DNA of 64,000 nt, taken from positions 64,001 to 128,000 of the IMG/VR virus record IMGVR_UViG_3300030330_004956. One strand, 5' to 3'. Origin of the DNA: a virus (lineage: Duplodnaviria; Caudoviricetes). Positions 57,573 through 58,453 of the stretch are shown piece after piece. Within the stretch, counting starts at the first letter, position 1, and each line of letters opens with the position of its first letter. The position numbers and the translations under genes are program-made. Under the pieces are notes generated by a model. The model made no database searches. It was not told where the DNA came from and saw nothing but the letters and a program-made list of their open reading frames with translations.

Positions 57573-57912
57573 GGGGGCGTAATGGCTTCGACAGGGTAGA
57601 ACTCGGAGGACAAGTGCAAGTAGGATTGAGCATCCTTGATCGTTCAAAAACAATAGTTGCAAATAACAACAATCACTTTGACTCTGTTCGCCTAGCGGCT
57701 TAGTCAGGTGGCTGTCTGGAGCCATCTATCCAATCTAGACTTTAGCAGTGGGATCTGCCAAGAAATAATTGTCCCACCTGTCCAATACTCGATCACGGAG
57801 TGGCTAAATTACAGTGATTATCCTGTTAATCGGAGAAATGATTAACTATGCTTGTGAATGACTTTAATCTTGGCTACTGTGGACGGGGGTTCGACTCCCC
57901 CCGCCTCCACCA
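57573..57912 (+). ncRNA. ssrA: tmRNA
   Basis: GGGGGCG/CGCCTCC-A-CCA acceptor with G3:U; TTCGAC near the 5' end; T-arm GGGGG-TTCGACT-CCCCC; tag ANNNNHFDSVRLAA* at 57659-57703. Confidence 0.95.
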
Positions 57913-57925
57913 TCTTTGAAATTGC

Positions 57926-58023
57926 TGGGGAGTGGCGGAATTGGCAGACGCACCTGACTGTTTCTCAGGCGGTGATCAGGCGATAAGCCCACCTTGGAGG
58001 TTCGAATCCTTCCTCTCCAGCCA
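57926..58023 (+). tRNA. Atypical class II-shaped tRNA, anticodon GTT, 26-nt variable arm
   Basis: TGGGGAG/CTCTCCA-G-CCA; Leu-like D arm; CCTGA-CT-GTT-TC-TCAGG; T-arm GGAGG-TTCGAAT-CCTTC. Confidence 0.8.
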
Positions 58024-58027
58024 TTTA

Positions 58028-58104
58028 GGGCACTTAGTTCAGTTGGTTAGAGCACCCCGCTCATAACGGGATAGTCCTCGGTTCAAGTCCGAGAGTGCCC
58101 ACCA
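58028..58104 (+). tRNA. tRNA with CAT anticodon, probably Ile2 (lysidine type); Met not excluded
   Basis: GGGCACT/AGTGCCC-A-CCA; CT-CAT-AA loop; lacks the initiator C1:A72 mismatch. Confidence 0.85.
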
Positions 58105-58300: not shown

Positions 58301-58374
58301 TGCCCCTTAGCTCAGATGGTTAGAGCAGCGGACTGTTAATCCGCGTGTCCTCGGTTCAAGTCCGAGAGGGGCAG
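58301..58374 (+). tRNA. tRNA-Asn(GTT), canonical, CCA not encoded
   Basis: TGCCCCT/AGGGGCA-G; GCGGA-CT-GTT-AA-TCCGC. Confidence 0.93.
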
Positions 58375-58377
58375 CAT

Positions 58378-58453
58378 GGGTTGTTAGCTCAATAGGTAGA
58401 GCATCGGGCTTTTAACCCGCAGGTTCCGAGTTCGAGTCTCGGACAACCCACCA
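58378..58453 (+). tRNA. tRNA-Lys(TTT)
   Basis: GGGTTGT/ACAACCC-A-CCA; CT-TTT-AA loop. Confidence 0.93.

Follow-up and report, generated by a model that had tools for sequence, protein, structure and literature searches.

The stretch of DNA analysed here (the window, 64,000 nucleotides) corresponds to bases 64001-128000 of an IMG/VR record of 184,889 bp, which is 98% complete and has a G+C content of 40%. The genes of this phage include those for a myovirus-type head and sheath and for a DnaE-type polymerase, and no close cultured relative of it was found. On the + strand of the window, between 57573 and 58453, ARAGORN identified an array of RNA genes that begins with a tmRNA and ends with a tRNA-Lys (Table 1). 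Between these genes lie a tRNA(CAU), a canonical tRNA-Asn(GUU) and a second tRNA with the anticodon GUU, hereafter the odd tRNA, whose architecture is of class II type. A scan for promoters and terminators around the array gave no signal above chance.

Table 1. Genes of the RNA array and structural elements of the odd tRNA (positions in the window).
Feature	Position	Strand	Description
Phage tmRNA	57573..57912	+	Ends 13 nt upstream of the odd tRNA; ARAGORN; Rfam tmRNA 115.5 bits
Odd tRNA(GUU)	57926..58023	+	98 nt including the encoded CCA; class II-type five-arm cloverleaf; ARAGORN
Acceptor stem, 7 bp	57926..57932 with 58013-58019	+	U1-A72, G4.U69 (read from the sequence)
D arm	57935..57951	+	3-bp stem, 11-nt loop, tRNA-Leu type; GCG-GAAUUGGCAGA-CGC
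Anticodon arm	57953..57969	+	5 bp CCUGA/UCAGG, loop CUGUUUC; GUU at 57960-57962, U37 at 57963
Variable region, 26 nt	57970..57995	+	Hairpin: 4-bp stem, 4-nt bulge, 3-bp stem, 5-nt loop
T arm	57996..58012	+	GGAGG-UUCGAAU-CCUUC, canonical loop
3' end of the odd tRNA	G73 at 58020; encoded CCA 58021-58023	+	
tRNA(CAU)	58028..58104	+	Starts 4 nt downstream of the odd tRNA; ARAGORN; Rfam 63.1 bits
56-codon ORF			Between tRNA(CAU) and the canonical tRNA-Asn
Canonical class I tRNA-Asn(GUU)	58301..58375	+	Loop CUGUUAA, U1-A72, G73; ARAGORN; Rfam 66.4 bits
tRNA-Lys(UUU)	58378..58453	+	Final gene of the array; ARAGORN; Rfam 73.1 bits

The tmRNA is a one-piece molecule with the tag ANNNNHFDSVRLAA, and tmRNAs with different tags adjoin members of the odd tRNA family in the unrelated viral contigs L026, L028, L039, and L116. 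The T arm and its flanking bases are identical in tRNA(CAU) and in the canonical tRNA-Asn, which suggests a duplication or a gene conversion inside the array. Given that the codon ATA is common in this phage (18 per 1000 codons), tRNA(CAU) could be a candidate Ile2-type tRNA. The tRNA set of the phage (Leu-UAA, Lys-UUU, Arg-UCU, and Asn-GUU) fits the A/T-rich codons that it favours; AAT and AAC are used at 32.9 and 24.2 per 1000 codons, respectively.

The odd tRNA scores 44.2 bits against the Rfam tRNA model (gathering score 29, E = 2.8e-7), and the geometry of its acceptor/T branch is 7/5. Its anticodon loop contains U33, the anticodon G34 U35 U36, then U37 and C38, and the pairs G2-C71 and C11-G24 are also present. 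A first-pass annotation of this DNA had described a 7/5 cloverleaf with U1-A72, G73, an encoded CCA, the loop CUGUUUC and a 26-nt variable arm, and each of these descriptive statements is correct. Likewise, the bulged hairpin drawn for the extra arm was reproduced exactly when the arm was folded alone (-8.7 kcal/mol, z -2.3), and the canonical tRNA-Asn, which had been placed about 280 nt downstream, starts 278 nt downstream. The D arm had been called Leu-like: nt 5-28 are indeed 100% identical to annotated tRNA-Leu genes, and tRNA-Leu(UAA) molecules are the next-best scorers on the family model described below. The minimum free-energy structure of the whole window copy is not the cloverleaf, and that of its ortholog in L047 is; covariation among relatives supports the cloverleaf fold of the odd tRNA.

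The anticodon and G73 serve both AsnRS and ND-AspRS and suffice to transplant Asn identity (PMC9976931), and the pair U1-A72 is a determinant for GatCAB (PMC1635274). This complete bacterial Asn identity set (U1-A72, G73, and G34-U35-U36) is found in the odd tRNA, and the canonical tRNA-Asn of the window has the same acceptor end. In addition, LeuRS and TyrRS are kept off by G73, which is an antideterminant for both (PMC9976931, table). Since Asn marks stand at both the acceptor and the anticodon, the molecule carries Asn identity on a Leu-like body and is not a Ser or Leu tRNA with an Asn anticodon. The initial description of a chimera, with an Asn anticodon on a Leu/Ser-type body, therefore holds for the class II architecture but not for the acceptor end, which is also that of Asn. 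More generally, the anatomy given there is right and the tRNA is conserved and under selection, but the full identity set and the tie of the family to an AsnRS-like gene had been missed. At position 37, the odd tRNA differs from a normal tRNA-Asn: bacterial t6A requires 36-UAA-38 (PMC13276492), and the odd tRNA reads 36-UUC-38, so that t6A37 is not possible on it.

Homologs of the odd tRNA occur on about 80 viral contigs. A search pattern that combined the D loop and the anticodon loop yielded one and then 83 viral contigs; six chance matches were removed, and 78 loci (49 distinct sequences) were aligned over all arms except the variable region, with only about 70 positions alignable across the family. 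Among the 49 distinct members, 99.9% of the 977 stem cells are standard pairs and compensatory changes are seen at 16 of 20 stem pairs; by arm, they affect 7/7 pairs of the acceptor stem, 5/5 of the anticodon stem, and 3/5 of the T stem. The alignment has a covariation score of 0.73; shuffles give 0.18, and controls with slid partners no more than 0.125. G73 is invariant (49/49), the 1-72 pair is U-A in 37 members, A-U in 12 and G-C in none, and the 2-71 pair is C-G in 20/49. The variable region is between 7 and 41 nt long and measures only 7 nt in three members. The D-loop letters are invariant in this alignment (A2), in part because the search pattern fixed them. Conserved and covarying relatives, for which the first-pass annotation had proposed to search, are thus present. 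This covariation rules out a pseudogene or a chance cloverleaf and indicates that the odd tRNA is a conserved, selected phage tRNA rather than a one-off.

The initial tRNA patterns fixed UGUUU and were circular with respect to U37; the family was therefore re-sampled via the neighbouring AsnRS-like gene. In this enzyme-anchored sample of 80 loci, a tRNA directly follows the gene in 75. The anticodon is GUU in all 75, and position 37 is U in 57, A in 13 and C in 5, never G; the canonical Asn loop CUGUUAA sits on the same odd body in 13 of the 75. U37 is thereby ruled out as an invariant hallmark and, given an arm length of 7-41 nt, the family is not defined by U37 or by the long arm.

On a family model (R1), the window tRNA scores 82.4 bits, a value obtained with this copy in the training set, and independent family members score 70-93 bits, compared with at most 64 bits for other tRNAs: 52-64 for tRNA-Leu(UAA), 53-58 for phage tRNA-Gln, and at most 44 for canonical tRNA-Asn. 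The copies of the cultured Prochlorococcus phages P-SSM2 and P-SSM7, neither of which was in the training set, reach 79.5 and 71.5 bits, respectively. A blastn search of the tRNA against GenBank phages gave partial matches only, and the cultured carriers were found through protein search.

Several variants of the family were encountered. In L163, an A37 version is the sole Asn tRNA in a Met-Trp-Asn-Phe array. A relative in L109 (248-342, - strand) has the loop CUGUCCC, and hence the Asp anticodon GUC with C37 and C38; U1-A72 and G73 are present, and the extra arm is 25 nt long. Its score on the family model is 78 bits, and no AsnRS-like gene was found in more than 6 kb upstream. At L030:2555-2660, the 5' half of the family (acceptor strand, D arm and the first part of the anticodon arm, UUGUUUU) gives way to sequence of no relation to it, which may represent an interrupted or intron-bearing copy.

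In most carriers, the tRNA is associated with an enzyme-like gene. At 65 of the 78 family loci, the tRNA is preceded, at a median distance of 7 nt, by the end of a same-strand gene for an AsnRS-like protein of 270-300 aa (roughly 275 aa), and 8 of the 13 loci without it merely lack upstream sequence. A profile built from 19 representatives and searched against PDB and families matched class IIb catalytic domains, namely AsnRS (1e-11), AspRS, LysRS and, weakly, archaeal AsnA, with all matches far below the family cut-offs. The AsnRS match starts near residue 138 of the 435-aa enzyme, and the profile comparison found no OB-fold anticodon-binding domain in the AsnRS-like protein. This protein is widespread, with at least 8000 protein clusters in the protein search and at least 575 viral contigs. 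It is also encoded by the cultured phages P-SSM2, P-SSM5, and P-SSM7, where its GenBank label is 'tRNA ligase' (T4-GC 194), and in P-SSM7 the homolog of the odd tRNA is annotated beside it as tRNA-Asn. In most contigs, as in P-SSM2 and P-SSM7, the tRNA follows the core by 5-10 nt. In the literature searched, the enzyme is mentioned only once, as the entry 'tRNA ligase' in a table (PMC3037559). The same core also occurs in the huge uncultured phages LR756501, LR756503, and LR756508 (484-735 kb), with 45-49% identity.

The window phage belongs to a group of six carriers in which this arrangement is broken. The group comprises the window, L026, L047, L063, L067, and a 14-kb contig in a Flavobacteriales MAG. 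Upstream of the odd tRNA of the window stands the tmRNA and not an AsnRS-like gene, and L026, L047, L063, and L067 have ample upstream sequence, yet no enzyme; outside this sub-clade, the AsnRS-like core is present wherever the upstream sequence exceeds 370 nt. In the window genome (98% complete), a tblastn-type protein search found no AsnRS-like enzyme, there was no match to PF00152 (controls positive 14/14), and a six-frame search with the family HMM and filters off gave a best E value of 1.8. These searches thus revealed no hidden partner enzyme in this genome. Nor were matches found there to PF00587 (the SerRS-type core), AsnA, or GatB, in searches whose positive controls worked. The enzyme is also absent from G002, the 161.7-kb record of L047 (89% complete), where the positive control scored 483 bits. 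No recurrent protein neighbour was found that replaces the enzyme at the enzyme-less loci.

The four viral copies of the sub-clade share 81-88% core identity with that of the window, compared with at most 79% for other family members, and the MAG copy groups with them in alignment A3. Across the six copies, 100% of 144 stem cells pair, with compensatory changes at 9/24 pairs, and 2/4 pairs of the outer stem of the extra arm covary. The loop is constant as YUGUUUC, and U1-A72 occurs in all six. This pattern indicates purifying selection on the tRNA in a sub-clade that has no AsnRS-like enzyme, a combination that is new here. Because the loop is common to six independent assemblies, it is not an assembly error, a possibility that the first-pass annotation had considered. 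At five of the six loci, a canonical tRNA-Asn(GUU) lies close by. However, the five tRNAs of G002 include no other tRNA(GUU): beside the odd tRNA, they are Ile-UAU, Arg-UCU, Thr-UGU, and Gln-UUG. The earlier view that this copy is not needed as Asn donor, which rested on the canonical gene downstream, therefore does not hold in general. In the same genome (L333:1402-1574), the odd tRNA is followed after 1 nt by the tRNA-Gln(UUG), such that tRNAs for two amide amino acids are adjacent; phage tRNA-Gln genes in L127 and L165 have the same D arm, U1-A72 and G73.

The distribution of the gene is patchy. When 185,579 species genomes were scanned with the family pattern, one true match emerged, the phage-like 14-kb contig of the Flavobacteriales MAG, and a cellular origin of the tRNA was accordingly rejected. 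This MAG contains a normal asnS (573 bits), and no mini-enzyme was found in it; this one contig provides a weak hint that Flavobacteriales are the host. The carrier phages of the sub-clade are only partly related to one another. Furthermore, in 20 relatives of the window phage, recognized by a UvdE about 75% identical, the odd tRNA is absent near UvdE, which indicates that it is dispensable. Taken with the partial relatedness of the carriers, this points to an accessory, mobile gene that has long been kept functional without the enzyme.

On the basis of what was observed (the fold and the selection on it, membership of the family, the marks of Asn identity, and a genome without the enzyme), we infer, with a probability of about one half, that the odd tRNA is a working Asn tRNA, charged by the host and used on the ribosome to decode AAU and AAC as asparagine. 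Transcription would be shared with the rest of the array, tmRNA included, and processing would yield a tRNA that ends in CCA. As the phage encodes no synthetase or amidotransferase, charging must fall to host enzymes, either AsnRS or ND-AspRS, which would recognize G34-U35-U36 and G73; if the indirect route is used, GatCAB would read U1-A72. The Leu-like D arm, the long extra arm and U37 would be peculiarities handed down within a lineage of viral tRNAs; in the majority of phages, this lineage goes with its own AsnRS-like enzyme, which lacks an anticodon-binding domain. The sub-clade would have escaped this pairing and joined ordinary codon-supply tRNA arrays. U37 would perhaps make the tRNA independent of host modification or of anticodon-loop nucleases.

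A role in translation fits the codon-supply arrays, the match to codon usage, the position of the odd tRNA as sole tRNA(GUU) in G002, the array of L163 and the asnS gene of the MAG. It is also favoured by the canonical T loop and arm geometry and by the AsnRS-like nature of the partner where one is present. Other features speak against a decoder. With U37, decoding of codons that start with A may be weak, and the canonical tRNA-Asn beside the odd one at 5/6 sub-clade loci hints that the two are not equivalent. Nearly all decoding tRNAs have a purine at position 37, and the U/A/C variation in the family looks like relaxed constraint rather than the normal constraint of decoding. Class II synthetases approach the tRNA from the side of the variable arm, and the 26-nt arm might hinder the host AsnRS or AspRS.

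The same U37, the U/A/C variation at this position and the canonical copies at 5/6 sub-clade loci keep in play two other functions, a non-ribosomal donor and a decoy, which the first-pass annotation had also named. In one, which we consider rather unlikely, the tRNA would be charged by the host via GUU and G73 and would pass Asn or Asp non-ribosomally to a metabolic or transfer enzyme, with U37 and the odd body blocking use by the ribosome; the recipient would be the AsnRS-like protein in most phages and another phage or host enzyme here. The tight linkage of the tRNA to the AsnRS-like core (median 7 nt in 65/78 loci; 75/80 enzyme loci) suits such a hand-over, as do a residue 37 that varies in a manner unusual for a decoder and the canonical tRNA-Asn that accompanies the tRNA at 5/6 sub-clade loci. 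In addition, the enzyme has no anticodon-binding domain and GUU is nevertheless invariant, which implies that something else reads the anticodon. However, the sub-clade, with two near-complete genomes, retains the tRNA under purifying selection in the absence of the enzyme, and neither a recurrent protein neighbour in its place nor a mini-enzyme in the Flavobacteriales MAG was found. The T arm also lacks the changes typical of non-ribosomal tRNAs, and the gene sits in ordinary codon-supply arrays, being the only tRNA(GUU) in G002 and L163. Less probable still would be a role in defence, as a hardened back-up or decoy in which U37 and the altered body resist or sponge a host factor directed at tRNA-Asn during infection, either a nuclease of the anticodon loop or a t6A-dependent one, while the canonical copy serves normal decoding. 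Phage tRNAs do evade tRNA-cutting defence effectors (PMC11555353). Consistent with such a role, positions 37 and 38 are the only ones at which the odd loop departs from the canonical Asn loop, t6A37 is not possible on the odd tRNA (PMC13276492), and odd and canonical copies are paired at 5/6 sub-clade loci. On the other hand, no nuclease targeting tRNA-Asn is known for the hosts of the carriers, and 17% of family members have A37. The long arm and the Leu-like D arm are left unexplained by defence, and the conserved acceptor identity marks and the encoded CCA would be superfluous in a pure decoy.

Charging with serine was the first function suggested for this tRNA: SerRS would recognize the long arm and G73, and serine would be inserted at Asn codons. 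SerRS does read these two features while ignoring the anticodon (PMC7609411), and the window copy has both of them, together with G2-C71 and C11-G24. Across the family, however, the arm varies from 7 to 41 nt and is only 7 nt in three members, 20/49 members have C-G at 2-71, a SerRS antideterminant in E. coli tRNA-Leu (PMC9976931, table), and the D loop is of Leu type; SerRS recognition thus cannot be the conserved function. The window copy itself lacks the Ser-type D loop, the G1-C72 pair (it has U-A) and the anticodon of a tRNA-Ser. Furthermore, the complete Asn identity set is conserved, the partner in the family is AsnRS-like and not SerRS-like, and no SerRS-type core was found in the window phage. 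Mistranslation of Asn codons as serine is therefore unsupported at the level of the family and very improbable. Decay is, in our view, as poor a candidate or a slightly poorer one: the odd tRNA would be a functionless leftover, brought into the phage with part of the enzyme-tRNA module. The window genome does lack the gene that normally accompanies the tRNA, relatives of the window phage lack the tRNA, and the minimum free-energy structure of the window copy alone is not the cloverleaf. A remnant would hardly be expected, however, to survive as six enzyme-less copies in different phages with 81-88% core identity, 100% pairing and nine compensatory pairs. The GUU-U37 loop is unchanged in the sub-clade, the CCA is encoded, and the spacing to the flanking RNA genes is tight.

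Beyond host-charged decoding as the preferred reading, a broader proposal can be made tentatively, one that we hold possible but would not call likely: the long-arm tRNA(GUU) may be a natural, self-sufficient alternative Asn adaptor, without t6A37 and with a class II body, served either by a private synthetase or by host enzymes alone. If so, it would be a near-orthogonal tRNA that insulates the Asn supply of the phage from host control or defence, whether for translation or for an undescribed tRNA-dependent pathway.

In bacteria, long extra arms are confined to the tRNAs for Leu, Ser, Tyr, and Sec, and tRNAs almost universally have a purine at position 37 (2020 review, PMC7609411, and textbooks). 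Against this textbook confinement, the family places the full Asn identity on a class II body, mostly with U37. Such tRNA-Asn molecules of class II architecture, most of them with a pyrimidine at 37, are present in published cyanophage genomes yet unstudied in the literature searched; a full-text search found no description of the family. The family is abundant in ocean viruses and has gone unremarked in P-SSM2 since publication of that genome. A tRNA under selection without its synthetase-like partner bears on whether such a molecule is the captive cofactor of an enzyme or an adaptor in its own right. More generally, the enzyme-tRNA pair and its orphan form offer material for the study of tRNA identity evolution and t6A-free translation, and for orthogonal pairs in genetic-code engineering.

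Other unusual tRNAs were met in the course of the searches. A second abundant viral tRNA-like family (L085, L090, L092, L099, L108 with two copies, L112, L131, L166 with two copies, and about 50 more loci) has nearly invariant 5' and 3' acceptor strands, D arm and T arm, with A1-U72, A73 and no CCA. Its middle of 40-75 nt is wholly different between contigs and contains no evident anticodon arm, and its members come mostly from samples numbered outside the range of the apparently marine ones. In Streptomyces sp. CA-251387, L201 and L223 lie about 2.8 kb apart on one contig and are tRNA-Leu-like (G1-C72, A73, CCA, long arm), with an anticodon arm that can be read in two ways, as the loop UGUUUUG on a stem of 6 bp or as a 9-nt loop on a stem of 5 bp. 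Finally, the annotated tRNA-His of the Brevibacillus phages Jenst and SecTim467 (H55-H57) matches nt 7-73 of a family member with 79% identity, and may be another tRNA outside Leu, Ser and Tyr on a class II-like body.

Among known systems, the allo-tRNAs (Mukai et al., 2017, PMC5389517; PMC7609411) are similar in being natural, in some cases phage-borne, and in combining a long arm with an unexpected anticodon. However, they have 8/4 or 9/3 branches and a Ser or Ala identity that ignores the anticodon, whereas the odd tRNA is 7/5, with both acceptor and anticodon of Asn type. Phage tRNAs that escape nucleases (PMC11555353) are likewise phage isoacceptors that duplicate a host or canonical tRNA with an altered anticodon loop, but there both the nuclease and its target have been identified, and the body is ordinary; in the odd tRNA, the whole body is remodelled and no nuclease is known. 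Bacterial class II tRNA-Leu shares the identical D arm and the long extra arm, and differs by A73, a Leu anticodon and G1-C72 (the last as in the tRNA-Leu of the window), in place of which the odd tRNA has G73, GUU, and U1-A72. The tRNAs of P-SSM2 and P-SSM7 belong to the same family, with U1-A72, G73, an extra arm, and the loop CUGUUUA; in the modules of P-SSM2, P-SSM5, and P-SSM7, the tRNA stands 5-10 nt after the AsnRS-like core, a gene that is absent from the window genome and from G002. With canonical bacterial tRNA-Asn(GUU), the odd tRNA shares GUU, U33, G73, U1-A72, the 7/5 geometry and the canonical T loop. The canonical molecule is of class I: its variable loop has 5 nt, its D stem 4 bp, and its anticodon loop, CUGUUAA, offers A37 as t6A site, whereas the odd tRNA has a 26-nt extra arm folded as a hairpin, a 3-bp D stem, an 11-nt loop of Leu type, and U37-C38.
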